Source: a virus (taxonomy: Duplodnaviria; Caudoviricetes). From it: a stretch of 64,000 bases of DNA. The position numbers and the translations under genes were made by a program. The stretch is taken from the IMG/VR virus record IMGVR_UViG_3300037722_000745, positions 1 to 64,000 of that record; one strand, written 5' to 3'. The notes under the pieces were generated by a model. That model saw only the letters and a list, made by a program, of their open reading frames with translations, was not told the origin of the DNA and searched no databases. Positions 1,714 to 61,062 of the stretch are shown in pieces (position 1 is the first letter of the stretch; the number at the start of each line of letters is the position of its first letter).

Positions 1714-2167
1714 GGATTCCTTTATTCCGCCACTACTGAGAGCGAGGTTAAGGATGACCGAACAAGATCTACTAGACTTTCGTCGCCGCTGCGTGGCGGC
1801 TCAGACAAACCATCGCACGATCGCGAAAGCAGAACACTACGCAGCTAGGTTGGAAGAGATTGCAGGGTCAATGCCCCTTGATCGAGGGATGCCAAAGAAT
1901 TCGACCCAACACTTGCTAGCTCTAACCGACAAGGCCCTGCGAGTCCTCTCTGGGGAAGAGACCGCAACCGCAAAGGCTGCTCCCAAAAAGGCGGCCAAAA
2001 AGGCGGCCAAAAAGAAATCGTCTAAGACAGCACATAAGCCTGTTGCCGAAACGACTGCTGCAGACAGCAGCGACAGTGAGCCTGCAGTGGATCCTGCAAA
2101 AGATCCTACCGGACCCGAAAGCAGCGACAGTGAGCACGCAGGGGAACCCGAGGACCCGACAGCCTAG
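1697..2167 (+). CDS. hypothetical protein with histone-H1-like KKAAKK tract
   Basis: AKAAPKKAAKKAAKKKSSK followed by an acidic tail with a duplicated SSDSE. Confidence 0.65.
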   Translation: MTTRPEDSFIPPLLRARLRMTEQDLLDFRRRCVAAQTNHRTIAKAEHYAARLEEIAGSMPLDRGMPKNSTQHLLALTDKALRVLSGEETATAKAAPKKAAKKAAKKKSSKTAHKPVAETTAADSSDSEPAVDPAKDPTGPESSDSEHAGEPEDPTA

Positions 2168-2871
2168 ATCAGCGTCGAGACCGCTTTAGTTGTAGCCTCA
2201 CGTAGATGGTCTAACGTTTGGTTGTTTTGAACCACGCTATCGAATTCGGAATCGGGAATTCCTCGCTGCTCCGATTCCGATTGGTGCCTTCCGTAGACAC
2301 CTTCTAGACCGGCGCCATCACGTAGGACCCGAATCACTTTTCCGCCGGCCTCTTTGATCATCTTGATCTCGTTGCGGAAGCGAACGTCTGGGATCACCAC
2401 ACCGACAAAGGAAGAGGGCTGACACAACAACCCTTCTTTCTGGGTGTAGTTGTAAGCTCCCGTCAGGATTTGATTTGCTGTGCGCACCCCAAGAGCCGCC
2501 CAGGTGTCCGGATAGCACTCGCGGCCCCATTCTGAACCTAACCGTTGAAGGGCCTCCCGAGGGGGCAAACAGGTGATACGAGTCCCGTTACAGTCGGGAC
2601 ACTTTTCGTCTAGCCCTACATGGTCAGCGCTGTAATGACCGTGACCGTGACATGATCGGCAAGGCCGTGGGTAGCGCTCATCTGGGATGTTCCTCGTCTC
2701 ACTGGGCCCCCACAGCTGATCGTCAGTGAACGCGTATACGTCGCGGACTATGCGCTTCAGAGGGTCGGCCAGCGCGACTTTGACAAAGTTGTGATCAGAA
2801 ACCAAGACGTCCGCCACACTATCTTTCCCTGAACTTGCGAAACCAGAGACTCCAATGATGACTTTGGGCAT
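2164..2871 (-). CDS. deoxynucleoside monophosphate kinase with inserted Zn finger
   Basis: N-terminal P-loop GVSGFASSGKD, ALADPLK, LQRLGSEWGR, IPDVRFRNE; CxxCxGxG...CxxCxG insert. Confidence 0.88.
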   Translation of the reverse strand: MPKVIIGVSGFASSGKDSVADVLVSDHNFVKVALADPLKRIVRDVYAFTDDQLWGPSETRNIPDERYPRPCRSCHGHGHYSADHVGLDEKCPDCNGTRITCLPPREALQRLGSEWGRECYPDTWAALGVRTANQILTGAYNYTQKEGLLCQPSSFVGVVIPDVRFRNEIKMIKEAGGKVIRVLRDGAGLEGVYGRHQSESEQRGIPDSEFDSVVQNNQTLDHLREATTKAVSTLI

Positions 2872-2902
2872 GCGGGCCCATACACCAGGCGCTGTGGCTT
2901 GA

Positions 2903-3175
2903 TCACTTCACGAGACCGCGCTGGCGAAGGTGATACAGCTCGTCCCCGAGCCATGTGATCTCTTGCAGACGGAACCACGGAGAGCGCGTTGGTTGCCCTA
3001 TCCCCTGTGTGATGCGCACACGGAAGTAGGGCTTCAGCCTCGGTCCATACGCGATCCCAGTCACCATCCCGGTCACCCCCTTTAGACCCTCTCGTGGGGC
3101 GTTTACCTCTACGATGTCACGGATGCTGATCCCCTTGACCTGGAGGTAAGGATCGCGGCGCTTACCCAGTCGCAT
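2903..3175 (-). CDS. small KOW/SH3-like hypothetical protein
   Basis: 90-aa ORF, IRDIVEV...GVTGMVTGI pattern; GGTGTA element 11 nt upstream. Confidence 0.55.
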   Translation of the reverse strand: MRLGKRRDPYLQVKGISIRDIVEVNAPREGLKGVTGMVTGIAYGPRLKPYFRVRITQGIGQPTRSPWFRLQEITWLGDELYHLRQRGLVK

Positions 3176-3194
3176 GGAGTTCTTGCTACACCGC

Positions 3195-4364
3195 TTACCG
3201 CATCGCCTCGGAGAGCACGGTGAACACCATACCCAGAGTGGCCCAGTCGGTCATCGGATCACGAAGCATATCCCCGACCGTGGTGACCTCTACGTAGGTC
3301 CGCTCGGAATCCTCTTCGACCCCATGGGCTTGACCGCGTAAGGTATGGAAGTAGTCCAGTTCAGCGGCCGTGATCTCTGCCGAGTAGGCATAAGCACAGA
3401 CAGAAGATAGCGTTCCGTAGAGTTGACGAGAAGACGCTGGTATCAAACGATCGGGATCGATATCGAATAATACCTCTTCATTCAACTCCTCGACCGCAGT
3501 GATTTTTGGGTCGGTCCCAGGTTTGGACGATCCGCCCGGCATCTCCCGGATGAAACCGTCTGACGTTCGACTAGGGCTCCTGAACTCCCGAACTAGGACA
3601 ACCTCAGTGCCTCTGAGCGTAGGAGCACGATGCCACAAGACCACCGAGGATATGTCAGGTCGGCCAAACACAAATTCGTTGCTTTTGACACGATCCTCCG
3701 ACGCAACATAGACCGACACCTTCAAGACCCAACAGAAGATGCGACGTGCTTTGGGCATGATGGATAGCCACAAGACCCGAGAGTCTAGAAGCTCGTTTCC
3801 TGCTCCCCTCTGCGCTTGATACCAACTCTGAAAGCTTTCTTGCTGCCAGATGTAAAGAGGTACGGTCGTCTCCCCTCCGGTACGAACGGCTCCCTCGCCA
3901 ACCATGTCAACAGCGGCTTCAAGGGCCTTGAGCAGTGTGGTGGCTTGCGGCACCTGAAGCTTATTGGCGTAGTACCGTTGGTAGGTGACCTTGGGGGCTG
4001 TGTCTGGCGCTCCTAACACCACCTTACCGGAGTATTTCCAGAGGCCCCACTCATCGTTCGTCGTGAATCCGGGCAGCCTCTCCAAGTCCCGCGGGATCCA
4101 GAACAAGATGCAGTCGGCTCGATTGAGAGCTGCCTCTTCCCATTCAACTTGCTCGTCGTAGTTCTCAGCCCACTTACCGTCGGCTGGCTCTGGTATATAC
4201 ACGTGACCGTCATACCCCAGCGACCTGAGGACCTGAAGTGCGGAAGGTCTCCAGCTCTCAACCTCAGACTCCCCTTTCTTGGGTTTGCGAGGGGTCGGTC
4301 CCGCGAGGAAGATGGACTTAGTTACTTTGGTTGGGAGAGGCTGACGTGCGTAGACTGGGATCAT
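3195..4364 (-). CDS. nucleoside 2-deoxyribosyltransferase-like domain fused to NUDIX hydrolase
   Basis: SIFLAGPT..SWR..EQVEWEEAALNRADCILFWIPRD..PGFTTNDEWG (NDT-like); C-terminal LVREFRSP..MPGGSS..TAVEELNEEV (NUDIX box variant). Confidence 0.85.
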   Translation of the reverse strand: MIPVYARQPLPTKVTKSIFLAGPTPRKPKKGESEVESWRPSALQVLRSLGYDGHVYIPEPADGKWAENYDEQVEWEEAALNRADCILFWIPRDLERLPGFTTNDEWGLWKYSGKVVLGAPDTAPKVTYQRYYANKLQVPQATTLLKALEAAVDMVGEGAVRTGGETTVPLYIWQQESFQSWYQAQRGAGNELLDSRVLWLSIMPKARRIFCWVLKVSVYVASEDRVKSNEFVFGRPDISSVVLWHRAPTLRGTEVVLVREFRSPSRTSDGFIREMPGGSSKPGTDPKITAVEELNEEVLFDIDPDRLIPASSRQLYGTLSSVCAYAYSAEITAAELDYFHTLRGQAHGVEEDSERTYVEVTTVGDMLRDPMTDWATLGMVFTVLSEAMR

Positions 4365-6096
4365 TGGTGGCGCCCTCTGACAAGGCTCGAAGCGTTCGCT
4401 TGGCAGCTTCGCGCTTCGCTTCCTTCTTGGAAGTCGCCTTGCCCTCCGCCGCTACACCAAAGAATTCACAATTACACACAAACGATGCCTGAGGATCCCC
4501 CGAGGAAGAAAAGCTATAGGTGGGTAACGCATGCCCTCGGCCTTGGGCCCATTCCTGCAACTCTGAAATGGGGTCCTTCCCGGCAATGACAGGTGACACT
4601 ACTGTGGAGGGTGCAAGAGCGTGGTCGTCCAACTCCAACGCAAAGGCGGCACGCCCCGCGAGAAAGCGTAGGGCCGCATGTTGCTTCGCTTTCTTCTTCG
4701 TGGTGCCAAAGCCAATTGCCCGTTCCTCGCCTTGTTGGGCCGCACACTCGAACTGAGGGGGCGCTGAAGAGAGGGTCGTTTCGTGAAACTCAACCCCTTC
4801 CCAACCCATCTGTGATGCCATGGCGAGAACCGAGACCGCCAACTCAGGCTTCCCCTGCAGGTATTGGACTGCCGCTCGTCGCAGGGGAACCCAGTCTTCG
4901 GGCGCCTCTGTGAAGGCCAAGGTGATGCAGACGAGAGGAAGCTGGTTGTCTCCTAGACGTCGCTCGTACTCGTCTATCAAACCCTCGCTGGGACAACCCC
5001 CTGAACGAGCTTCTACTTTGACAACGCGTTCCAGCTGTTTGTCGTTCAGATGACGTAAGCGTCCCCGCTCAACACGGCGTTGGGCGACCCGCGTTGCCGT
5101 GTTCTTCATGTGATTGGCTTTGGTCCGTCGTAGTTCCTCTAGCCCTGTGTTGATGCGTTCCGCTAGCTCGTCAAGCTGTGACTTATCACGAGGGTAAGGT
5201 CCACCAAGAAGATGCGCCCGCAGTTGCCCGTGGTTGAGCAAGTCGGGGTAGCGTCGGATCGGACTGGTAGCGTGCAGGTAGGCCGGTAGGTTCAGCCCAT
5301 AGTGCCCCGTGAGGGTGGCTCCGTAATGTGCTCGATCGAGCAGTAGGTGTGTCCGCTGGCGGACCGTATCAAGACTCACCAACGGCGTGTGTAGAGCGTC
5401 CTCAATCTGGCGCATCAGCTCAGACCGATCGGGAGCCGCTGCCCGAGCCACGTGGTTGCGAAACAAAAGCGGAATGTCTTGCTCTACAGCGAACTCGGCC
5501 ACGGCAGAGTTCGCCAACACCATAAGCTCTTGGACAACGATGTAGCCCACGGTGGCTTCGTGCTTCTTAATTTGTCGGAGATGCCCCTCTTCCGTGGTGA
5601 CCCACCCCGTGTTTAAGTCATAGAGAGCGAGCGCTCCCTGCAGCCGTCGTTGATTCAGCAACTGGTGGCTCAGAGTCACTGCGTGACGAAGCATCTCGGT
5701 GAAGGGAGTGTCCTGCGTCAGCACTGTTGGGATCTGTTCGTAGGAGAGCTTGGCTCTACTCTTGATGGTCGTCAGTCCCAGGCGGGTGTCGATCCGTTCT
5801 AAGTCGTTGTCGAGCTGGATTTCGATCGCCAACACCCTTCGGATTTTGTTCGGCCAAAGAGATAGGGTGGTCTCAGCCTGCCGGGGGAGCATGGGCAGAG
5901 TCCTGTTGGGTAGGTAACGGGACACAATGAGGTCCCGGGCCCGAAGATCGTCTTCGGAGTTAGGAGGGATTTCAGCCGCGGCATCGGCAATGTATATGAA
6001 GATCTTCCAACGATCTTCATATCTTTCGACCCACAGGGCGTCGTCCATATCCCGGGTCTCACGGGCGTCTATCGTAACAGCGGGCAAATTTCCCAT
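4318..6096 (-). CDS. RNase II/R (RNB) exoribonuclease with two C-terminal dsRNA-binding domains
   Basis: TIDARETRDMDDAL, TLPMLP, VQELMVLAN, HYGLNLPAYLHATSPIRRYPDL; dsRBDs ending FGTTKKKAKQHAA and KDPISELQEWAQ...GKATSKKEAKREAA. Probable start ATG 6096. Confidence 0.92.
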   Translation of the reverse strand: MGNLPAVTIDARETRDMDDALWVERYEDRWKIFIYIADAAAEIPPNSEDDLRARDLIVSRYLPNRTLPMLPRQAETTLSLWPNKIRRVLAIEIQLDNDLERIDTRLGLTTIKSRAKLSYEQIPTVLTQDTPFTEMLRHAVTLSHQLLNQRRLQGALALYDLNTGWVTTEEGHLRQIKKHEATVGYIVVQELMVLANSAVAEFAVEQDIPLLFRNHVARAAAPDRSELMRQIEDALHTPLVSLDTVRQRTHLLLDRAHYGATLTGHYGLNLPAYLHATSPIRRYPDLLNHGQLRAHLLGGPYPRDKSQLDELAERINTGLEELRRTKANHMKNTATRVAQRRVERGRLRHLNDKQLERVVKVEARSGGCPSEGLIDEYERRLGDNQLPLVCITLAFTEAPEDWVPLRRAAVQYLQGKPELAVSVLAMASQMGWEGVEFHETTLSSAPPQFECAAQQGEERAIGFGTTKKKAKQHAALRFLAGRAAFALELDDHALAPSTVVSPVIAGKDPISELQEWAQGRGHALPTYSFSSSGDPQASFVCNCEFFGVAAEGKATSKKEAKREAAKRTLRALSEGATNDPSLRTSASPNQSN

Positions 6097-6180
6097 TTTC
6101 TTTTTAGATTTAGCCGGGCTCCGGTGTAATACTTTCAACTCATCCCGTACTCTTTACCACGAGAGGGATGGATACACCGC

Positions 6181-6849
6181 ATGAGCCCAGACGTAGAAAA
6201 ATATCGGCGAGGTACCACTCGGGTGGAAGCGATCATCCTGAACATTGCTGGGTTCAGCGGGTTGGAGGCTCTTCCAGAGATCCGCGCTCGCTACAGTGAG
6301 CCGGGTCGTTTCTACCACACATGGGGGCACGCTATCGCCGTACTCGGCCGGGTCAACTACGTCTGCGAAGCCTTCTCTGGGGACGACTTGGCTCCCTTCA
6401 CACATGCTGATTTGCGACGGGCCGCCCTGCTCCACGATGTGATCTACGACGTGACGAAAGGCAGCCCACGGAACGAACAAGAGAGCGCCGCCTACGCCGC
6501 GACAGTGTTCTCGGATCCGGAGCGCTGCCAAGAGTTGATTCTGGCGACCGCAGAGCACGGCAAACCGGAAGCCGTCTCATTCCCCCTACCCGTGGCTCTC
6601 TTCCTCGATTCCGACTTGGCTTTCGCGTTCGCAGAAGAACGCTGGGAGAGTTTCGAGCAACGAAACCACGAGATCGAGCAAGAGTACATGCAGCACTTCG
6701 GTGCCATGGAAGTGCGGCGGGGGCGCCTTGCATTCCTACAACGTCTTCAGGGACAGCCTCACCTGTTCCTGACCGAGTATTTCCGAGAGCGCTTCGAGGC
6801 CAAGGCTCGCGAGCACCTGGGGCGCCTCATCGAGACGTACGAAGGGTAA
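6181..6849 (+). CDS. HD-superfamily metal-dependent phosphohydrolase (COG4339-like)
   Basis: RFYHTWGH, LLHDVIYD, NEQESA, LILAT..H, FLDSDLA, IEQEY, GRLAFL. Confidence 0.85.
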   Translation: MSPDVEKYRRGTTRVEAIILNIAGFSGLEALPEIRARYSEPGRFYHTWGHAIAVLGRVNYVCEAFSGDDLAPFTHADLRRAALLHDVIYDVTKGSPRNEQESAAYAATVFSDPERCQELILATAEHGKPEAVSFPLPVALFLDSDLAFAFAEERWESFEQRNHEIEQEYMQHFGAMEVRRGRLAFLQRLQGQPHLFLTEYFRERFEAKAREHLGRLIETYEG

Positions 6850-23384: not shown

Positions 23385-24179
23385 TCAGCTCAACTGTGAT
23401 GAGAGGTCGGCCATGTTCAGGCCAGACTCAGCCAGCATAGTCTCTGCCGGGGACTCTGTGGGGGTGTCCGGCGACTCGTTAGTTTCAATGGGCGCTGCCT
23501 TCGTGGTAGATTCTTCAGGCTCCGCCGGGGCTTCCTGCTGCTTGGCGGCACCGTTCTTCTTCCCCGACTTACCCTTCTTTGGGCCTCGACGCGATCGCCC
23601 CTTCATGGCATTCAGGGTCTCTGCTCTCACGACGTCCGTCAAGAACTTGGCGACTCGATACTGACCTCGAACGATCTCCCCGCCATTCAAGGCCGGCAAG
23701 AACAAGGGCCCATGAACATCCTTCGCCGCACTGAAAGTCGTGGCAACATGGGCCTTGAGTTTCTTCCCATCCGAGGTGGACAACCCCTCAGCGATGAGAA
23801 GGTCTGCCACTTCTTTCGCTCTGTGGGCCTTCCGGCCCATGACCTTCATCATTTTGCTAGCCATGCTACCGCCCTCTTTGGGCTTACGACCCTTCGTGGT
23901 GGGCGCGGGCGTAGCGGAAGCCTTGGCCTTTCTACCAGCCTTCTTCTTGCCAGCCTTCTTCTTGGCCTTTCTACCGGCTTTCTTCTTACCCGTCTCCGCA
24001 TCCGGGAAGACTTCCGCAAACTTCGAGGCTTGTGTCTGGAGGGTCTCAACTGCCGCATACGCGGTGTCGAAATCCTTCTTGGCTTTCAGCAATGCCGCTT
24101 CTGTTGTTGCCTTGGCCTTCTGAGCGGCAGCAAGGCTCTTGCTCAGCTCTTCCCGCGCTTTCTTCAAAATCGCATCCAT
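23385..24179 (-). CDS. Lys/Ala-rich histone-H1-like DNA-binding protein
   Basis: Tandem GKKKAGRKAK repeats, central wHTH-like segment, acidic tail; AGGAG 6 nt before ATG 24179. Confidence 0.7.
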   Translation of the reverse strand: MDAILKKAREELSKSLAAAQKAKATTEAALLKAKKDFDTAYAAVETLQTQASKFAEVFPDAETGKKKAGRKAKKKAGKKKAGRKAKASATPAPTTKGRKPKEGGSMASKMMKVMGRKAHRAKEVADLLIAEGLSTSDGKKLKAHVATTFSAAKDVHGPLFLPALNGGEIVRGQYRVAKFLTDVVRAETLNAMKGRSRRGPKKGKSGKKNGAAKQQEAPAEPEESTTKAAPIETNESPDTPTESPAETMLAESGLNMADLSSQLS

Positions 24180-44717: not shown

Positions 44718-45593
44718 TTACCAGGGCCCCTTACGCTTCGGATGGTATTTGGAGCCCGATGACCCGGGCGGCAGCAGATCGTCGGAGTTTGATTGGGATG
44801 GCCTCGAAGTTGATTGGGATGACTTAGACTGGTCAAACAAATTGCTTTTCGGTGGGTCGACTCCCATCCCAATTGCATTGTCGTTATCCTCGACTTCCTC
44901 CTGTACCTCTCTGCGCAATCGGTTGACTCTCTCTCTAGCTTCCTCAACCCCCCCACCCAGATCGACTATGTCATAGTTCTCTTGGATGTAGCCCCAAGCA
45001 CCAGGAGTGTAGGCTTCATGCCCTGGGCCAAAGAACTCAACATCCTCCGCAATCCAGGTGGGTTTGCCTGCGCCCATTCGAATCGCCATCGTTTCATGAA
45101 GCACATCCCCAGCAGCTCTGTTCCGGTGGAGAACCCCGAGCCGTATGATGACTAAGCTCGGCGGTAGAAGAAGATCGTTGAGGTTGTTGTAAGTGGCGAT
45201 CGTCTCCCGGTTTTCCTTGGATCTCTTCGTGTAGGCAAAGTCCCCAAGCCATACCCGCACCAGCTCCTGGTCGTCCGTGGTCCGAAACGTGAAACCCTTG
45301 GAGTATTCCCACTTCACCGAAAGGACCCAACGCAAGTGCCGGCAAACCATCTCCCAGGTCCCCCTCAGGAACAGGTTCTCTTGGGTGGCATCCCGGTCTT
45401 CAGTGTAGAGAGGACTCCGAACGTGCTTCACGCCTGAAATGACGGGACCCAGAAATGCATGAAGCTGCTTGCGTTTGAGACAAATGCACGGAATCGGAAT
45501 CAGGTCCTCGCCGTCGGTCTCATAGCGCCAGTGTTTTCCTTTGCACTGTGGGCATATGGTCTCCTCAGGCACGATTGGTAGATACACCGGCAT
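44718..45593 (-). CDS. possible DnaC/DnaI-like helicase loader
   Basis: CPQC...CIC Zn motif then degenerate P-loop fold (LLLPPSLVIIRLG, KPTWI); next to DnaB. Confidence 0.5.
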   Translation of the reverse strand: MPVYLPIVPEETICPQCKGKHWRYETDGEDLIPIPCICLKRKQLHAFLGPVISGVKHVRSPLYTEDRDATQENLFLRGTWEMVCRHLRWVLSVKWEYSKGFTFRTTDDQELVRVWLGDFAYTKRSKENRETIATYNNLNDLLLPPSLVIIRLGVLHRNRAAGDVLHETMAIRMGAGKPTWIAEDVEFFGPGHEAYTPGAWGYIQENYDIVDLGGGVEEARERVNRLRREVQEEVEDNDNAIGMGVDPPKSNLFDQSKSSQSTSRPSQSNSDDLLPPGSSGSKYHPKRKGPW

Positions 45594-48429
45594 CCGAGTC
45601 TCGCAGACTCTTCATCAGCTCGTAGGAGAAGCTACCCTCACTCTCGAAATTCAAAGCTCCGACCGCAGCTTCCCCAAGCACTTTGTCGATCAGGTCTTTC
45701 TTGCTTTGAAGGATTTGGAGTGTGTAGTGATCGATCGTCTTTTTTGCTCGACCCGGACGCTCCGCTACTAGGTGGATCGCTACGACGTGTTGGTGAGGAG
45801 AGCCGATACGAATCGGTCGCCCGAGAAGCTGGACGTAGTTCCCCCACGACCAAGGAGCATTGTAGAAGATCATCGCCGCAGCGGCTTGTAGGTTGATCGA
45901 CTCCGAACCCGCATCTGAGATGAAGATGACCCGCACATCGGATTCAGGATCCTGAAACTCCAGCATGGCCCTCTGCCGAGCTGGATTGGTCTTGGTGTCG
46001 ACTACTTTGCCTGTGATCGCCGTGCTCTCCACCCCAGCTTTCTTGCACAACTCCTGAAGACGGGGGATGAGGGACGCGAATCGTGTGTACACAATCACCT
46101 TCTCCCCATCGAACTCCCCGGTGATCAGATCCAACATGGCTTCCTCTTTCGAGGACAAGGATTTCACGTTGTCCGCCTCACCCAACAACTCGAGCCCGAT
46201 AGTGTCCCCCTCTTCGAAGCGAAGTAAGCTCAGAGAATCAACCGTTTGTTGGCAGTAGATGAGCGCAGTCAGCGTTTTGGTCTCTTCGTAGTCCCGCACC
46301 TCTCCGTCCCCCAAAGCGAGCACGCCTGACAGTGCCTCCTCGTACTTCGTGTTCTCCGCTTTAGATAACGTGACCCGAACGTCGCGCGTGAGAAGCTTGG
46401 GAAGCTCGTCCGAAATCTCATGCTTCGGCCGTCCGAGGAAGAACGGATCAATGCGCATCCGGAACAGCTCCAGGTTCTTGTACCCGATGATGATCGGAAT
46501 TTTCCTTCGACCTCCTACAGGTTGCCACTTGACCTCGCAGAACAGGTCGAGGAACTTCGTCTTCGTCGTGAAGACTCTTGGGTAGATGCACTTGTAGATG
46601 GCGTAACCCTCGATCAAGTTGTTCTTGAGCAAGGTAGCTGTGAGCCCGTAACAACGATTTGCATGGCTGGCTAGCTCTGAACACACCTGCCACGTCTTTG
46701 TCGACGGGTTCTTGAACGCGGTGCAGTTAGAAACTAGGGCCCCTCCAGCTATGTAGTTATGGTTACCCTCGACCTCCAAGTCATAGACGTAGTCAAGATG
46801 CTCCCGCACCTTGGGGGCACGCTTCCATGGAGTTTTAGCCAGCACCACATCCCGTACCAAACCAACCGTAGGGTTACGATCCAAACTCTCCAACAGGAGT
46901 GGTTCTTTACCTGGAAACTTGTGCTCCACCCCAGGTAAAGAGCCAGGCAACAGCTCTAGGAACCTGTCGGCCGCCTCTGCGTCCAAGTACAACACCCAAT
47001 GACGACCTGACTTGCTAATCTGCGCCTGAACCCCCCACCGCCACCGAAGCCAACCCGCTAACAATTCGTTCTCGCCGTAGGTGAATCCTTGCGTGTTTAA
47101 AATAATACGACGGCGAACCACCCCTTCTTTGGTTGTGTGCGTCTGCAACGATCCGTCATCCCCATACCAGATCGCAAGACCTAACGGGCCAACGCGGCTC
47201 AACCATTCTACAGAGGGGTGCTTACGGCCTTCTCGATGCGTAGTCAGTGTTGAACACAAATGTGGGTTGGCTCGTAGCCTGAACCGGCAAATGGGAGAAC
47301 CCCCGTACCCGCTAGGGGTTGTGCTAATCTCAGAGGTGCCAAGCGAGGCTAACAAGCCCTTCTTGAAATCCAGGTATCTTCGCTGTGCTTGCCCATGTAC
47401 AAAAGACACCCCCCACAAACTACGCTTGGGGTGGGACACACTAGCATCCCCAAGCAAACCCCCCAGAATAATCTGGAGTTGATCATCAGAAGGTATTGTG
47501 TCCGTAAAGGTAGCTGTCTCGGAGCCCTTCCTAAGACGCCCTGCTTCCGTTGGTTTGCCGTCGCATCTGTAGAATTTATGATTTCTGGTTACGATCACGC
47601 TGTTGGCATACCGAAACTCAAGTTTCACCAACCCCTTCGTGCGCAATGGGTTACGGACCCAACGGATTACCCGGCGTGGTTCCATGGAGTTGGTCGCCCA
47701 GTTCCATGACAACACGGATACAGGTTCTCGCCCGCATACGATCTTGCCTATCAACCGCTCAGAGCCATCAGCTAAGCGTATTGGAGTGTGGTACTCGAAA
47801 CATTCGTCGTACACGACAGTGAGGCCGTCGATCTTCTGCATGAGGCCGTTCAACAACCCGGGGCTCATCGGCTTCTTCATGTCCGGCTGCCCGTTCTTCT
47901 TGAGCGGACGGGTGGCTCCCTGATTCCAGTCGCGGACCAAGGGAGCATACCCCATGACCATCACCGCTTTCGGGTCGTCCGGGCCCGTTGGATGATTCAA
48001 AAAAGCGTCGTAGGTTTCCCGACGCTCATCCGGACCTCCGTTTGCCAAGTAGACTTGAATACCTGTGGCGAACTTGTCGATCTCTGCCGCCCACTGACGC
48101 AGGGCGCTCTTGGGGGTGATCACGACCACTTTGTTCGTCGGTTCTTTCTGCCAGGTGTAGCAAAAAGCTGCAATGCAGGTGGGCGTCTTGCCCGTGCCAG
48201 TGGCGTCCCCGAGCACCATCCTCTTCATCGACATCAGATGGAAGACCGCCTGGACTTGATAGTACCGGAGCTTGAACGGCTGGACTTTGCCGTCGATGCC
48301 CACGATCTCAGATCGCAGCATCGAGATGGGCTTGAGCGCTACCGTCTTGCTCTCCCGGACCTTTTTGAGAAGCTCGTAGACCTTCCTGTGCTTCTCTACC
48401 GGATCTTCTTTAGGTGTTTTCGCGGCCAT
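45565..48429 (-). CDS. SNF2-family helicase with intein
   Basis: LGDATGTGKT, YDE|C, LTATLLKN, VIVYTRF, GSESINLQ, WSWGNYVQLLGR. Confidence 0.93.
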   Translation of the reverse strand: MAAKTPKEDPVEKHRKVYELLKKVRESKTVALKPISMLRSEIVGIDGKVQPFKLRYYQVQAVFHLMSMKRMVLGDATGTGKTPTCIAAFCYTWQKEPTNKVVVITPKSALRQWAAEIDKFATGIQVYLANGGPDERRETYDAFLNHPTGPDDPKAVMVMGYAPLVRDWNQGATRPLKKNGQPDMKKPMSPGLLNGLMQKIDGLTVVYDECFEYHTPIRLADGSERLIGKIVCGREPVSVLSWNWATNSMEPRRVIRWVRNPLRTKGLVKLEFRYANSVIVTRNHKFYRCDGKPTEAGRLRKGSETATFTDTIPSDDQLQIILGGLLGDASVSHPKRSLWGVSFVHGQAQRRYLDFKKGLLASLGTSEISTTPSGYGGSPICRFRLRANPHLCSTLTTHREGRKHPSVEWLSRVGPLGLAIWYGDDGSLQTHTTKEGVVRRRIILNTQGFTYGENELLAGWLRWRWGVQAQISKSGRHWVLYLDAEAADRFLELLPGSLPGVEHKFPGKEPLLLESLDRNPTVGLVRDVVLAKTPWKRAPKVREHLDYVYDLEVEGNHNYIAGGALVSNCTAFKNPSTKTWQVCSELASHANRCYGLTATLLKNNLIEGYAIYKCIYPRVFTTKTKFLDLFCEVKWQPVGGRRKIPIIIGYKNLELFRMRIDPFFLGRPKHEISDELPKLLTRDVRVTLSKAENTKYEEALSGVLALGDGEVRDYEETKTLTALIYCQQTVDSLSLLRFEEGDTIGLELLGEADNVKSLSSKEEAMLDLITGEFDGEKVIVYTRFASLIPRLQELCKKAGVESTAITGKVVDTKTNPARQRAMLEFQDPESDVRVIFISDAGSESINLQAAAAMIFYNAPWSWGNYVQLLGRPIRIGSPHQHVVAIHLVAERPGRAKKTIDHYTLQILQSKKDLIDKVLGEAAVGALNFESEGSFSYELMKSLRDSDAGVSTNRA
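46726..47802 (-). mobile_element. intein with LAGLIDADG homing endonuclease (359 aa)
   Basis: Starts CFEYHTPI after YDE; ends VYDLEVEGNHNYIAGGALVSN before Cys+1; internal GGLLGDAS and IWYGDDG. Confidence 0.93.
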
Positions 48430-56742: not shown

Positions 56743-59700
56743 CTACGCCTTACGGGTCAACGGGATTGCCGACGAGTCAATGAGCATCCGAGTGTTGTTG
56801 CGCACAAGCGGATGCCCCTCAATTCGATAGAGGTCCGCAGCCGCATACCCCTCTCCGGTGCCATTCGTACCAATACGGATGGGCGTCGGGGCTGAGGACC
56901 CAATGGGCGCATCGTAAACGCTGGTCAGAATCAGCATCATCAGCTCACTGCCAGCCGATGCCTCATTTGAACCCACGTTGGTAACGGAGTTCCGAACCAA
57001 CATGGCCCGTCCTTGAAGCGTACGAACATGATCCGTAGTGGCCGTGGCTACCGAGTTGTTCAGAGATACTGAGCCTCCGGGCCTCGGCCCGGAAGCCACA
57101 AACACGGAGCCACCACGATGCGTGCGGAAGTTCGTGTCCAGAGCGAAGTTGTTGGCCTCCCCATCTACATGGACCAAAACATCTCCAGGAGACCCAACTC
57201 CAGAGGTCGCGGTGCTCAGACGCACCTCGTGATGCTCGAGAGCCGGCGATGCAAGACCTGTGGATTGCCCTGATCCCACGGTATTTCGGTAGACGAGAGG
57301 AGCCATCACGTCCGTGTACCCGAAGTGCTGACCTCGGAAATCCTTGTCACGAAACAACGCTCCTAGAGGCAGCCGCTCCGTGCACCCGAGATACTCGGTA
57401 CCGATGTCCGGCCCGTCTCCAGCGAAGTTCGTAGGGAGAGCCTTGGGTCGTGGGTCCACACCAGAAGACGGCGGGTAGACGGACGGATCCTCGTAGGCCA
57501 CATTGGTGAACACCAAATCAGCGTCCGAAGCGTCTCCTGAATAGCGGCCCGTACCCAACGAGGTCGCGAAACTCAAGGAAGCTAGCACCTCCAACGCCTT
57601 CTCATTAGGCCGAGTCAGGTTGTCCGCATCCAATTCAGTCGACACCACATCAAAGGCATCGTCTGACATGAGCGGTCCAGGGACGTACGGGAGATCGATG
57701 TAGCTGTTCTGAGATCCCCAAGCATCCCCTTGGTACGGGGTGCGACTGTAGTTCACCAGGATCTGATCGGAGGCCGTAGCGGGTCCTGGGAGAAGCGCCG
57801 AAGGACCCGTAACACGCTTGTTGATGTTGTCTTCTCGGCTACCCGCAGCTCCCGGGTCTCCTCCGCTGCCCACATCGTCCCACGCGTTAACATTGCCAGG
57901 GCGGGTCAGTATGAGACGAGCCTCTGAATTCAGATCGAATGTGCCACGGTCAAACCCAAACACGGCCGCCTCTACCACATAGGTGCCCGAGGCGAAGTCC
58001 GCGATGGGGTTCGGCGACCGGGTGATATCGATCGCGTTGGCGTTCAAGATGAAAGTCGAGTCCCCATCCGAGTCAATTTCAATCCACATGGGCGGCCCAT
58101 CGCCCGACCTCATAGCCTGTCGCAGGAGATTCGTTGCGGTGCCGCCTCCGCCTGGCCCGCGCTCATCGGTGAAAGGGGTGCTCGAACTGATGTAGTCCTG
58201 GGCCTCGTAGACACCGAACAGGCGAGCAGCGCCATAGAAGGGCGGCAATTCCAGCCCCTCTCGACCTAGCCCTCGGGAGTCAGTGAAAAAACGCATCCCA
58301 GCAGTCTGATTCCCACTGATAACTCCCGCTGTGTTGAAACTGAGGGGGTTCGACGCAAAATCAATCTGGCTGAATACAGAGTATCGAAAAGAGGTGTTGC
58401 TATACGCAATGTAGTTGAATTGGTTCTCAACCACAGCGCCTGGAGTGCTCCGGATCATGTAGTTGATGCCGCTAGCAAAGTCGCCATCCTCCGCAATCAT
58501 TGGCACGTTCAACTCGCCCCAGCCCGGGACAAGGTGCCGGGGTAGGCTGACATAGATGTTGTTGAACGCGGGGTCCCCCGCTGATTGACTACAAAACAAC
58601 CCAAGGGGGTCTGTCTGTGTCCACTTCGGCGTGACGCCATCGACTGCGTTGAGGGGCATGACTCCTTGGGCGCTGTGAGTCGTGTAGCTGATGCCCACAG
58701 TAGCCTGGGCTCGAACAGGACGGTCGAGGGTGTAGCTAGTGGCTCCAACACTGAGGATCGTATAACGACCGGCGCCGGGTCCAGACGGAATCACCAAGGC
58801 ATCCCCGCCAACCGTAGTCCCTACACCACTCGCGTCCTCAAACACCGGCGTGTTAGCGCTGCTTGTGAAGCCTGTCGCACTGGTCAGTTTGGGAGTTGGA
58901 ACAGGGTTCGCTGCGTCCCCATCCACTGTCAGAAGATTGGGGAATTCGATTCGACGGAAAGGCGTAGCAATCACGGTCTTGCTGCCAAGATCCGCGTACA
59001 TCTCCGTGATCGACGGTAGCAAGCCGTTGAACTCTGCCGTCCGGTACTTCGCCCACAGAGGAGCCCACGCGACACGTGCTACGTGGTTGGTGTCAGGGAT
59101 GCCTCGCTCCTGCACCATCAGCAGCGACGACGGGTTGAGATAGGTGATGTTGTGCAGCGAGTCGGGGCGACGTGCGAGACCGCGTCCCGGACCATAGACT
59201 GCATGCACCCGGATGTGGAGCTGACGCGGAGACGCCGTCGTCGTAAGCTGGCTCGGGAAGCTTCCCGATAGCGTGATGATCAGGTTGTCCGCAGGCCCTG
59301 GGACCGCTGGCGTCACTGTGTACATGGTCGACGGTAGGTCGCCCGTCTCGCCAGCAAGACGCAGTTGAACAGCGCCCGTAACGCTGTCATTCAGCCACCG
59401 GATCTGATCCGTAGCACCCGCTTGAAGCCCCGTTTTGAGTTGGTTGACGGGGATCTCAATGATGTCGCCGGCTGTGAATTGGTTGCCGACCGTCTGGTTC
59501 GTCGTGTTAACGGTCAGAGATAACGACCACGGCTCGTTGATCGCCACACCAGGGCCCGGCGGCACAACACCCGAGTTGGGTCGAACCACGCACTCGATTG
59601 GTTGGATCGTCGCCGCATCAGAGAAGACCGTACGGATGTTGTCTGGAGCGTCGAGTTGCGTCACGCCCAATGACACCGCGGCCGACTGAATCGCATCCTG

Positions 59701-61062
59701 GTAATGGACGAAGGTCCCTTGGGGCCCACCGCCGGAGCGCTTCCAGTTGGCTCGCAGCTCACCCCTCAGCAGCTTGTCGACGTTGTTCTGAAGCAGCGCC
59801 GTGTAGTCCATCCCGTTAGGATTGACCGAGTGCCGTAAGTCGAGAATATCAGTGAGAGCGATCTGGTCTGAAAACAGCTCGTCGGGGCGCCCAGAAATGA
59901 CACGGATCTCAGACCCCGCCAAGTGAGCTTCCCCGATCGTTCCGTTGGTGCCTCGAGTCAGACCATTCAGCGTCGTACCGGTGATCGATGTGTAGGTCAG
60001 GATCTCGTCGCCGATTTGAATCGTCACCGCCGTCGCCGGGGAGGCGGGGAGCGGAATATTCGTGACTGAAGCAAGCGTCGCCGAAGTGGCCGTTGCGTTG
60101 AGATCCGCCGCAAGGGTTGGAACGGTAGAGAACGTCTTAACGCCTGTGCGATCGACTGCCGTCGGGTTGCGGTCGAACCCCCCATTCAAGTTCTGCGATG
60201 GGTTTCCATTCCAACCAATCGAGTTCCTACGGAACACCACCGCGATCGGAACGGCATAGCTATAGCCATCCACGGTCCCTAGCGAGGAACTAGTCCCATC
60301 ACCCGCACGCCACAACCCAGGGTCCCCCAGCTCCTCCCGCATGTTTTCAAACGTGAACGCAGTCACAGCCGAAGCCGCACCCTGCGCTTTGACAACCACA
60401 GGATCGAAGCCATCCGGGTATGTCGTCAGACCTACCAAGCCCTTGACCACACGGATGCGGTACTGGATTTGAACTCGCTGCTCTGTCTCAAACCCAAGAG
60501 CAGGATCGAGCAAATCATCTGGGAGAAAAGAGCTGCCAGACTCGACATTACCGTAGCGGTAGATGCCACTAGCAGACGGCTTGTTTGTAGTTGACGGGTT
60601 AGGCTGAATCCTGGCCTTCCACACCTCCAAAAAGACGAAGTCAATCCGGAAGTCCCCTGAATTGGAGGGAGGGGGATCAAGCGCAATGACGTTCGTCGTG
60701 TCGGTGTCATTAGGACTCCCGGGAGGAGTGCCCGTCCGTGTGCCTGTCACCGGGATCAACCACCCGTTGACGTTCGCCCACATGATAGATCGCTGCTCAC
60801 CGGCTCGCTGCGGACCGAACTTGAACCAGTTCGACCATGTGGAGTGGGTTTGGTAACTTGCCTGGGGGTTGGTCTCGTTACCCAAAAACCCAGAAGGTGT
60901 GCCGCGCAAAACCGCAGACTGCAAAGCTTCGTGAGCCAACTGCTGTTGCAGTATCAGAGCTGCGTCGGTTGGAGGCTTGCCCTGCTGCCAAATAGTGGTG
61001 ATGTACTGCGTGTCTGCCGATTGCAGGACACGGGACACTCCGGGACCTAGATTGTCGCTCAT
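56743..61062 (-). CDS. large virion structural protein (tail/baseplate-like), 1439 aa
   Basis: Gly/Thr/Ser-rich beta protein with IQIGDEILTYT..LTRGTNGT..AHLAG module common in tail proteins. Confidence 0.7.
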   Translation of the reverse strand: MSDNLGPGVSRVLQSADTQYITTIWQQGKPPTDAALILQQQLAHEALQSAVLRGTPSGFLGNETNPQASYQTHSTWSNWFKFGPQRAGEQRSIMWANVNGWLIPVTGTRTGTPPGSPNDTDTTNVIALDPPPSNSGDFRIDFVFLEVWKARIQPNPSTTNKPSASGIYRYGNVESGSSFLPDDLLDPALGFETEQRVQIQYRIRVVKGLVGLTTYPDGFDPVVVKAQGAASAVTAFTFENMREELGDPGLWRAGDGTSSSLGTVDGYSYAVPIAVVFRRNSIGWNGNPSQNLNGGFDRNPTAVDRTGVKTFSTVPTLAADLNATATSATLASVTNIPLPASPATAVTIQIGDEILTYTSITGTTLNGLTRGTNGTIGEAHLAGSEIRVISGRPDELFSDQIALTDILDLRHSVNPNGMDYTALLQNNVDKLLRGELRANWKRSGGGPQGTFVHYQDAIQSAAVSLGVTQLDAPDNIRTVFSDAATIQPIECVVRPNSGVVPPGPGVAINEPWSLSLTVNTTNQTVGNQFTAGDIIEIPVNQLKTGLQAGATDQIRWLNDSVTGAVQLRLAGETGDLPSTMYTVTPAVPGPADNLIITLSGSFPSQLTTTASPRQLHIRVHAVYGPGRGLARRPDSLHNITYLNPSSLLMVQERGIPDTNHVARVAWAPLWAKYRTAEFNGLLPSITEMYADLGSKTVIATPFRRIEFPNLLTVDGDAANPVPTPKLTSATGFTSSANTPVFEDASGVGTTVGGDALVIPSGPGAGRYTILSVGATSYTLDRPVRAQATVGISYTTHSAQGVMPLNAVDGVTPKWTQTDPLGLFCSQSAGDPAFNNIYVSLPRHLVPGWGELNVPMIAEDGDFASGINYMIRSTPGAVVENQFNYIAYSNTSFRYSVFSQIDFASNPLSFNTAGVISGNQTAGMRFFTDSRGLGREGLELPPFYGAARLFGVYEAQDYISSSTPFTDERGPGGGGTATNLLRQAMRSGDGPPMWIEIDSDGDSTFILNANAIDITRSPNPIADFASGTYVVEAAVFGFDRGTFDLNSEARLILTRPGNVNAWDDVGSGGDPGAAGSREDNINKRVTGPSALLPGPATASDQILVNYSRTPYQGDAWGSQNSYIDLPYVPGPLMSDDAFDVVSTELDADNLTRPNEKALEVLASLSFATSLGTGRYSGDASDADLVFTNVAYEDPSVYPPSSGVDPRPKALPTNFAGDGPDIGTEYLGCTERLPLGALFRDKDFRGQHFGYTDVMAPLVYRNTVGSGQSTGLASPALEHHEVRLSTATSGVGSPGDVLVHVDGEANNFALDTNFRTHRGGSVFVASGPRPGGSVSLNNSVATATTDHVRTLQGRAMLVRNSVTNVGSNEASAGSELMMLILTSVYDAPIGSSAPTPIRIGTNGTGEGYAAADLYRIEGHPLVRNNTRMLIDSSAIPLTRKA

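Follow-up and report, generated by a model that had tools for sequence, protein, structure and literature searches.

RNase II and RNase R are textbook RNA-decay enzymes, and their choice of substrate is ascribed to a clamp of cold-shock domains (CSDs) and an S1 domain. Double-stranded RNA (dsRNA)-binding domains (dsRBDs) bind A-form duplexes without sequence specificity across about 12-16 bp, as in the structure 1DI2. Here, we describe a gene that joins the two, encoded in a 64,000-nucleotide stretch of viral DNA (positions 1 to 64,000 of the IMG/VR virus record IMGVR_UViG_3300037722_000745; hereafter the window). An earlier note on this DNA, made from the sequence alone, had described the product as a bare RNB core without CSD or S1 domains followed by two dsRBDs, and this description is borne out by Pfam, NCBIfam, an AlphaFold2 model, and comparison with the PDB. 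A conserved helical domain between the RNB domain and the first dsRBD, here called MID, had been overlooked; it travels with the dsRBDs as one module. The accompanying premise that cellular RNase II/R enzymes use CSD and S1 domains proved wrong here, as the dsRBD form is the sole RNB protein in three of the cellular genomes examined, namely Methanosarcina sp. UBA289, Glycomyces xiaoerkulensis, and Ktedonosporobacter rubrisoli. Sequence comparison indicates that the RNB-MID-dsRBD architecture is not a phage invention, and that it defines a widespread uncharacterized family of phages, archaea, and bacteria. A natural family in which the clamp has been swapped for dsRBDs provides a ready-made test of how RNA-binding modules set RNB specificity.

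Results

The catalytic core resembles RNase R

The N-terminal part of the protein belongs to the RNase II/R (RNB/RNR) superfamily, with the RNB domain and fold, the four aspartates of motif I, and the active-site arginine all present. The reading frame at 4318-6096 on the minus strand is open and gives 592 residues from its ATG, a start that is favored over the TTG upstream because homologues begin 6-10 residues ahead of the T-I-D motif. Pfam RNB (PF00773) matches residues 3-296 with an E value of 5.8e-65 and 220 bits against a cut-off of 29.3. The full protein was modeled by AlphaFold2 on a 101-sequence alignment with a mean predicted local distance difference test score (pLDDT) of 92.6 and a predicted template modeling score of 0.79. 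In VIA-align comparisons, residues 1-341 superimposed on Mycoplasma genitalium RNase R (7DCY, residues 265-642) with Z 37.6 and a root-mean-square deviation (rmsd) of 2.1 Å over 322 residues, and the core matched Escherichia coli RNase R (5XGU, residues 175-552) with Z 36.8, the rmsd for RNase R spanning 2.1-2.5 Å over about 320 residues. Model residues 1-345 matched E. coli RNase II (2IX1, residues 190-561) with Z 32.9. In NCBIfam, the RNB part alone was matched by RNase_R (TIGR02063, 187.4 bits against a cut-off of 597.85), 3_prime_RNase (TIGR00358, 184.1 against 368.6), and RNase_B (TIGR02062, 121 against 641.9), so that the protein does not reach any of these curated cut-offs for canonical RNase R or RNase II orthologues. 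The core is nearer to RNase R than to RNase II by both measures (187 versus 121 bits; Z 36.8-37.6 versus 30-33).

The nuclease truly lacks an N-terminal CSD clamp. Neither CSD, S1, nor any other OB-fold family was matched in the protein by Pfam or NCBIfam. Residue 1 already belongs to the RNB domain, and with a gap of just some 85 nt to the divergent HD gene upstream there is no room for CSDs; the overlapping minus-strand open reading frame (ORF) at 6154-6558 has no Pfam match. At the other end, where S1 is found in RNase II/R, the region behind the RNB domain is all-helical in the model.

The catalytic residues are retained. Across the 101 aligned family members, D18 and D19 are invariant, and D10 and D16 are kept in at least 98; we take their equivalents in E. 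coli RNase II to be D201, D207, D209, and D210. Invariant positions elsewhere in the core are H265, L268, Y273, S278, P279, R281, R282, and D285. Because these residues are invariant or nearly so among the homologues and are present in this copy, the protein is predicted to be catalytically active. A 40-residue helix (residues 305-344) closes the RNB domain, and range mapping places it at the position of the tri-helix "wedge" of RNase R. In E. coli RNase R, helix 524-545 is part of this wedge, which unwinds duplexes (PMC5714204), and we infer from the model that helix 305-344 corresponds to it.

A four-helix domain and two dsRBDs follow the core

The C-terminal half consists of MID, two dsRBDs, and a linker (Table 1). 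Folded alone (pLDDT 89.4), it was searched against 48,161 representative PDB chains without Foldseek, and its 50 best matches were dsRBDs only. Pfam matched dsrm (PF00035) twice (E 2.7e-19), and each copy alone exceeded the 23-bit cut-off in a six-frame search. Residues 508-574 superimposed on the dsRNA-bound dsRBD of XlrbpA (1DI2) with Z 12.3 and an rmsd of 1.2 Å over 67 residues, and dsRBD2 matched the dsRBD of Aquifex RNase III with Z 11.7. The match to 1DI2 and the composition of the 50 best hits confirm that the C-terminal repeats model as dsRBDs, as had been claimed. In the same search, the tandem-dsRBD proteins TRBP, R2D2, Loqs-PB, NF90, DRB4, ADAR2, and MLE aligned over both copies. 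The RNA-contact residues of dsRBD2, E515 in region 1 and K557-K558-x-A560-K561 in region 3, are invariant or nearly so; dsRBD1 retains region 3 (K468, A470, K471, and Q472).

MID stands where S1 is found in RNase II/R, directly behind the RNB domain. Its helices span residues 352-415 with pLDDT above 94 and run directly into dsRBD1. The domain has a signature of its own, F/L-E-R-V-x-K360...R364...R380...W402, in which E356, R357, K360, R364, R380, and W402 are conserved in the 101 sequences. Neither VIA-align run gave a specific PDB match to MID, a region that those runs barely tested.

Table 1. Coordinates of the nuclease gene, its domains and motifs, and the genes downstream (positions in the window; residue numbers from the ATG)
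Feature	Residues	Position	Strand	Basis and remarks
RNB-MID-dsRBD-dsRBD exoribonuclease gene	592 aa	4318..6096	minus	Stop codon 4318-4320; ORF translation, Pfam RNB and two dsrm matches, AlphaFold2 model
Preferred ATG start		6094-6096	minus	Homologue N-termini fit better (family alignment)
Alternative TTG start		6136..6138	minus	In frame; adds 14 basic residues; the resulting 606-aa form is the IMG gene call
Structural RNB domain	1-345	5062..6096	minus	Includes long helix 305-344; VIA-align and secondary structure
Catalytic motif I, T-I-D10...D16-x-D18-D19 (Mg2+-binding aspartates)		6040..6069	minus	Family alignment; aligned to the Bacillus subtilis RNase R motif
RNB motif G264-H-Y-G-L...Y273-x-H-x-T-S-P-I-R281 (active-site arginine segment)		5251..5304	minus	R282 is the next codon, outside the range
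MID, four-helix domain	346-416	4849..5061	minus	Conservation, models, MID-only profile
dsRBD1, alpha-beta-beta-beta-alpha	417-482	4651..4848	minus	Modeled as rigidly continuous with MID; Pfam dsrm 27.6 bits
Flexible linker (26 residues)	483-508	4573..4650	minus	pLDDT 58-75 in both models; length varies across the family
dsRBD2, canonical, alpha-beta-beta-beta-alpha	509-573	4378..4572	minus	Pfam dsrm 50.9 bits
NDT-like and NUDIX ORF		3195-4364	minus	Immediately downstream; Pfam and PHROG
90-aa ORF, then deoxynucleoside monophosphate (dNMP) kinase (2164-2871)		within 2164..4364	minus	Downstream of the NDT-NUDIX ORF; Pfam and PHROG

The family is widespread in phages, archaea, and bacteria

A word-indexed search retrieved more than 100 proteins of about 590 residues with 33-54% identity to the window protein, nearly all with RNB and dsrm domains, among them the chromosomal "Exoribonuclease R" of Methanocella conradii HZ254. 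Public databases label family members as "RNB domain-containing ribonuclease" or "ribonuclease R." The window protein shares the features that define the family: an N-terminal RNB domain, MID with the E-R-V-x-K...R...W signature, and one to three dsRBDs. A profile of MID alone found 377 clusters (at 50% identity) with E ≤1e-3 among 1.84 billion proteins, and most were RNB-MID-dsRBD proteins of about 600 residues from huge-phage contigs, a few methanogens, cyanobacterial plasmids, Actinomycetota, and Chloroflexota. In GTDB, RNB-MID was encoded at 72 of the 80 best loci, mostly with one to three dsRBDs, in Methanosarcina, Chthonomonadaceae, Ktedonobacteria, Caldilinea, Glycomyces, Actinomadura, and Rhodococcus, and further in many cyanobacteria, Ignavibacteria, some Pseudomonadota, and Nanoarchaeia and Micrarchaeota bins. 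The gene occurred in 4 of 101 sampled Methanosarcinales. The domain-architecture survey proposed in the earlier note thus shows the design to be real, but the same RNB-MID-dsRBD arrangement is found in Methanocella, Methanosarcina, Glycomyces, Ktedonobacteria, and cyanobacterial plasmids. A full-text literature search found no paper on an RNB-dsRBD enzyme, which does not disprove that one exists.

Among viruses, the dsRBD form is a minority. Nine contigs among the 80 best viral loci in IMG/VR encode RNB-MID-dsRBD, those that are not short fragments being 93-536 kb long, and no GenBank phage record covers at least 80% of the protein, the matches there being to classical RNB genes only. We also observed classical RNB proteins of about 625-750 residues, with an N-terminal extension of 180-280 residues and no MID or dsRBD, on about 70 viral contigs (L091-L161, about 10-150 kb); genes of the ordinary RNase II/R-like kind are therefore frequent among uncultured phages. 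In a FastTree phylogeny (unrooted, SH-like support), the window protein groups with two metagenomic proteins (support 100), and these three are nested in a clade of 19 rows (support 96) that combines sequences from huge phages and metagenomes with methanogens. Further viral sequences and Actinomycetota lie adjacent to this clade, and the cyanobacterial clade is separate. Within the cyanobacteria, Acaryochloris marina (G008) carries five plasmid copies, including those on plasmids pREB2, pREB4, and pREB5 of strain MBIC11017 (L024, L038, and L067), besides two classical chromosomal RNB genes, an unusual amplification.

MID and the dsRBDs also occur apart from RNB. The MID-dsRBD-dsRBD block forms the N-terminus, sometimes duplicated, of DUF3670-SNF2-Helicase_C proteins of 1368-1545 residues in Streptomyces and Kitasatospora (P0135, P0139, P0144, P0147, and P0243), with an hhalign probability of 99.6% (E 2e-23, 313 columns). 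Because the same block heads these helicases, it is a portable module. The pairing of dsRBDs with an SNF2 DNA translocase might point to recognition of R-loops or hybrids. The window ORF at 56743-61062 has the same length as P0243 (1439 aa); it has no similarity to it, and the agreement in length is a coincidence. Several short MID proteins (109-433 aa) appeared in the representative search, some of which may be contig fragments. In a related phage record (G118, IMGVR_UViG_3300020049_006032; DNA polymerase 47% identical), a strong MID match (E 1.7e-17) lies at 23707-23922 (-) in a 184-aa open frame, and no RNB domain was found anywhere in that record; the frame encodes a MID(-dsRBD) protein that stands alone, or it is a remnant.

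The gene is accessory in its phage lineage

The source is a 323-kb IMG/VR record, estimated to be 68% complete, and PHROG matches to a DNA polymerase, DnaB-type and other helicases, thymidylate synthase, and tail proteins identify it as a huge tailed phage. By the same matches, the window takes in the part of the genome devoted to replication and nucleotide metabolism. Searches of the 323-kb record revealed neither an RNase III nor a second dsrm protein. The nuclease is an accessory gene in this lineage, since it is missing from the two closest complete relatives (G111 and G112; 398 and 411 kb with terminal repeats, DNA polymerases 63% identical), in which neither the MID profile nor Pfam RNB found a match. 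The closer relatives overall (polymerases 59-65% identical) likewise have neither MID nor any RNB domain. We therefore rejected the nuclease as a core gene of the phage lineage.

Downstream, the nuclease, the NDT-NUDIX ORF, the 90-aa ORF, and the dNMP kinase possibly form one transcription unit. The last 47 nt of the nuclease gene (4318-4364) overlap the NDT-NUDIX ORF at its listed ATG, reflecting either a later start of that ORF or translational coupling. A dNMP kinase is also encoded near the nuclease homologue in two related phages (L083 and L084; DNA polymerases 49-54% identical), and NDT recurs in L083, where a thymidylate synthase lies between the two. Upstream, a divergent operon encodes an HD protein, an RlaP nucleotidyltransferase, an RNA ligase, and an NAD kinase, as assigned by Pfam and PHROG. 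Among 160 related loci, tblastn found no match for the proteins of this operon, only the dNMP kinase and NDT recurring, and a functional link to the operon was rejected. Conserved neighborhood was rejected as a clue to function. For the nuclease and five neighbors, PADLOC gave no family match at E ≤0.01, and membership in a defense system was also rejected. Elsewhere in the window, a 954-aa helicase ORF at 45565-48429 (-) carries a LAGLIDADG homing-endonuclease PHROG match at residues 314-506, flanked by helicase matches, which looks like an intein or a homing-endonuclease insertion in a replication helicase.

Discussion

We consider it slightly more probable than an even chance (about 0.55) that the protein is an active Mg2+-dependent hydrolytic RNase R-like 3'-5' exonuclease that docks on duplexes and serves in the auxiliary decay of structured or duplex RNA in the phage. 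In the model, MID-dsRBD1 takes the place of the missing OB-fold clamp of CSD1, CSD2, and S1 and is fixed to the catalytic domain, with the second, canonical dsRBD held on a 26-residue tether. The dsRBDs would dock the enzyme on A-form duplexes of about one helical turn or more, and candidate substrates include rRNA and tRNA helices, long hairpins, and sense-antisense duplexes. Docking would bring the open RNB channel to a higher local concentration close to a 3' end, and the RNase R-type core would then degrade the strand to nucleoside 5'-monophosphates. The RNase R-type core of E. coli can digest duplex RNA unaided. In the phage, the enzyme probably contributes to the decay of host stable RNA or of dsRNA by-products, and the released nucleotides may feed the phage nucleotide pool through the adjacent kinase and salvage genes; it is the position of the gene at the head of the dNMP-kinase/NDT-NUDIX block that suggests such feeding. 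We infer dsRNA binding, the substrate class, and the physiological role. The suggestion in the earlier note of an exonuclease retargeted to structured RNA seems reasonable on sequence grounds, given that the protein retains its catalytic residues and the majority of those that contact dsRNA. However, the same architecture is widespread in cellular genomes, and a retargeting specific to phages is therefore not borne out.

Several observations weigh against this proposal. The histidine of the G-P-x-H loop, which is RNA-contact region 2, is missing from both dsRBDs of this copy in the 101-sequence alignment. It is replaced by P446 in dsRBD1, where 77 of 101 relatives have histidine, and by Q536 in dsRBD2, where 94 have it and glutamine is found in this copy alone. 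These changes could weaken dsRNA binding and may mean that RNA recognition has been relaxed or altered in this phage, and they are a deviation of this copy rather than of the family. All-against-all BLAST of flanking ORFs over 81 family loci revealed no conserved neighbor outside Glycomyces, where recurrence is due to vertical synteny. The neighbors in other phages are unrelated, such as AAA ATPases and an ADP-ribosylglycohydrolase, which leaves three related genomes as the basis of the nucleotide-salvage link. The divergent HD/RlaP/RNA ligase operon adjoining the gene would fit a role in RNA repair or RNA processing equally well. Additionally, full salvage into deoxynucleoside triphosphates would need a ribonucleotide reductase, and the C-domain of its large subunit gave a sub-threshold match of 17.5 bits in a 1421-aa frame (G000 203109-203456 (-), outside the window), which may be a divergent or interrupted reductase.

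The adjoining RNA ligase/RlaP nucleotidyltransferase/HD operon, together with the tRNA-binding dsRBD of Dus2 (4wft, Z 8.9) among the structural matches, would suit an enzyme for 3'-end maturation or quality control of the phage's own structured RNAs, in which the dsRBDs sit on a stem as a ruler and the RNB domain trims the 3' trailer. Such a function is unlikely. The two closest complete relatives are without any RNB gene, which argues against an essential maturation role in the lineage, and the RNA-repair operon adjoins the homologue in no related locus. Furthermore, an RNase R-type core is, by textbook knowledge, processive and degradative rather than a trimmer.

A counter-defense nuclease acting on host crRNAs, CRISPR repeat hairpins, or structured defense RNAs of retron or toxin-antitoxin systems is rather improbable. 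The gene is accessory and patchy, occurs in five copies on cyanobacterial plasmids, and has been transferred between viruses and cells according to the tree, traits that are typical of conflict genes, and CRISPR elements are plentiful in the phage. However, the 36-nt CRISPR repeat of the window folds into a GAAA-capped hairpin whose stem of 8-9 bp is shorter than the usual dsRBD span, and the repeat hairpin is therefore unsupported as a target. As dsRBDs are not sequence-specific, they offer no obvious selection of defense RNAs. Neither a PADLOC match for the nuclease or its neighbors nor a conserved partner gene was found, and a gene that is the sole RNB enzyme of three cellular genomes looks like housekeeping. 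The crRNAs, repeat hairpins, and defense RNAs named as possible targets in the earlier note thus find no support, the more so with the gene missing from the closest complete relatives.

We regard it as more doubtful still that the dsRBDs are mainly protein-interaction or dimerization ("type B") domains recruiting the nuclease to the ribosome or a degradosome. dsRBD1 is the less canonical copy, with K-x-A-K-Q in region 3, and is packed rigidly on MID with high pLDDT in both models; the loop-2 histidines are lost here; and protein-binding dsRBDs (Staufen dsRBD5 and TRBP dsRBD3) are among the structural matches. However, dsRBD2 retains the nearly invariant RNA-contacting glutamate of region 1 and lysines of region 3, and its best structural matches are RNA-bound dsRBDs, namely 1DI2 and Aquifex RNase III. 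Finally, yeast Ssd1 (7am1, Z 30.5) is among the structural neighbors of the core, but a catalytically dead RNA-binding pseudonuclease of its kind is very improbable, as the four motif I aspartates and the active-site arginine, tyrosine, and histidine are present and are invariant, or nearly so, across the family.

The exonuclease proposed above, if it docks on duplexes as described, would be a candidate auxiliary RNA-decay function added to the biology of huge phages. The family is of more interest than this copy, which is not unique and whose role is putative; a dsRNA-directed exonuclease may come to light in it, and we found no such activity described for prokaryotes. Archaea have few dsRBD proteins, and this is one of them, occurring there sporadically and next to a virus-dominated clade; to our knowledge, archaea generally lack RNase III. 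With about 590 residues and a confident model, the enzyme is compact and might serve as a dsRNA-removing reagent. A broader scheme is conceivable, though we hold it only tentatively: RNB-MID-dsRBD proteins could form a distinct class of processive exoribonucleases that specifically seek out and destroy long dsRNA as the exonucleolytic equivalent of RNase III. These enzymes, traded with archaea and bacteria, would serve huge phages in removing dsRNA, or immune or regulatory RNAs that contain duplexes, and MID-dsRBD would be a portable "duplex sensor" shared with the Streptomyces SNF2 helicases.

Comparison with known systems

Bacterial RNase R (E. coli Rnr, 5XGU; B. subtilis, 8CDU; M. genitalium, 7DCY) shares with the phage protein the RNB fold, the motif I aspartates, and the S-P-I-R-R-Y segment. 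The phage protein is without the helix-turn-helix domain, CSD1, CSD2, S1, and the lysine-rich tail, and has MID and two dsRBDs at its C-terminus instead. E. coli RNase II (2IX1/2ID0) belongs to the same superfamily and has the same catalytic chemistry; its CSD/S1 clamp, which limits entry to single strands, is lacking in the phage protein. Eukaryotic Dis3L2 (4PMW and 8E28) is a close structural match to the core (Z 33-35.7) and is an RNB enzyme for structured substrates, namely hairpin RNAs with 3' tails, but it recognizes oligo-U through its CSDs and S1 and has no dsRBD.

The haloarchaeal RNase R homologue is, we presume, a short form without dsRBDs. Both it and the present family are prokaryotic RNB enzymes outside the classical bacterial setting, the former being the sole exoribonuclease of Haloferax volcanii (Portnoy & Schuster 2006, PMC1635327) and the latter the sole RNB enzyme in three cellular genomes. 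The SNF2-DUF3670 helicases of Streptomyces and Kitasatospora (for example, WP_355916398 and WP_402204866) have the whole MID-dsRBD-dsRBD module in common with the phage protein; they differ in carrying an SNF2 ATPase head with the module at the N-terminus, and they too are uncharacterized. The dsRBD fold and RNA-contact motifs match those of RNase III and the tandem-dsRBD cofactors (Aquifex RNase III, TRBP, Loqs-PB, R2D2, and DRB4) with Z 11-12, and the two dsRBDs on a flexible linker resemble the layout of TRBP, Loqs, and DRB4. In contrast to RNase III, the catalytic partner of the dsRBDs in the phage protein is predicted to be a processive exonuclease rather than the RNase III endonuclease.

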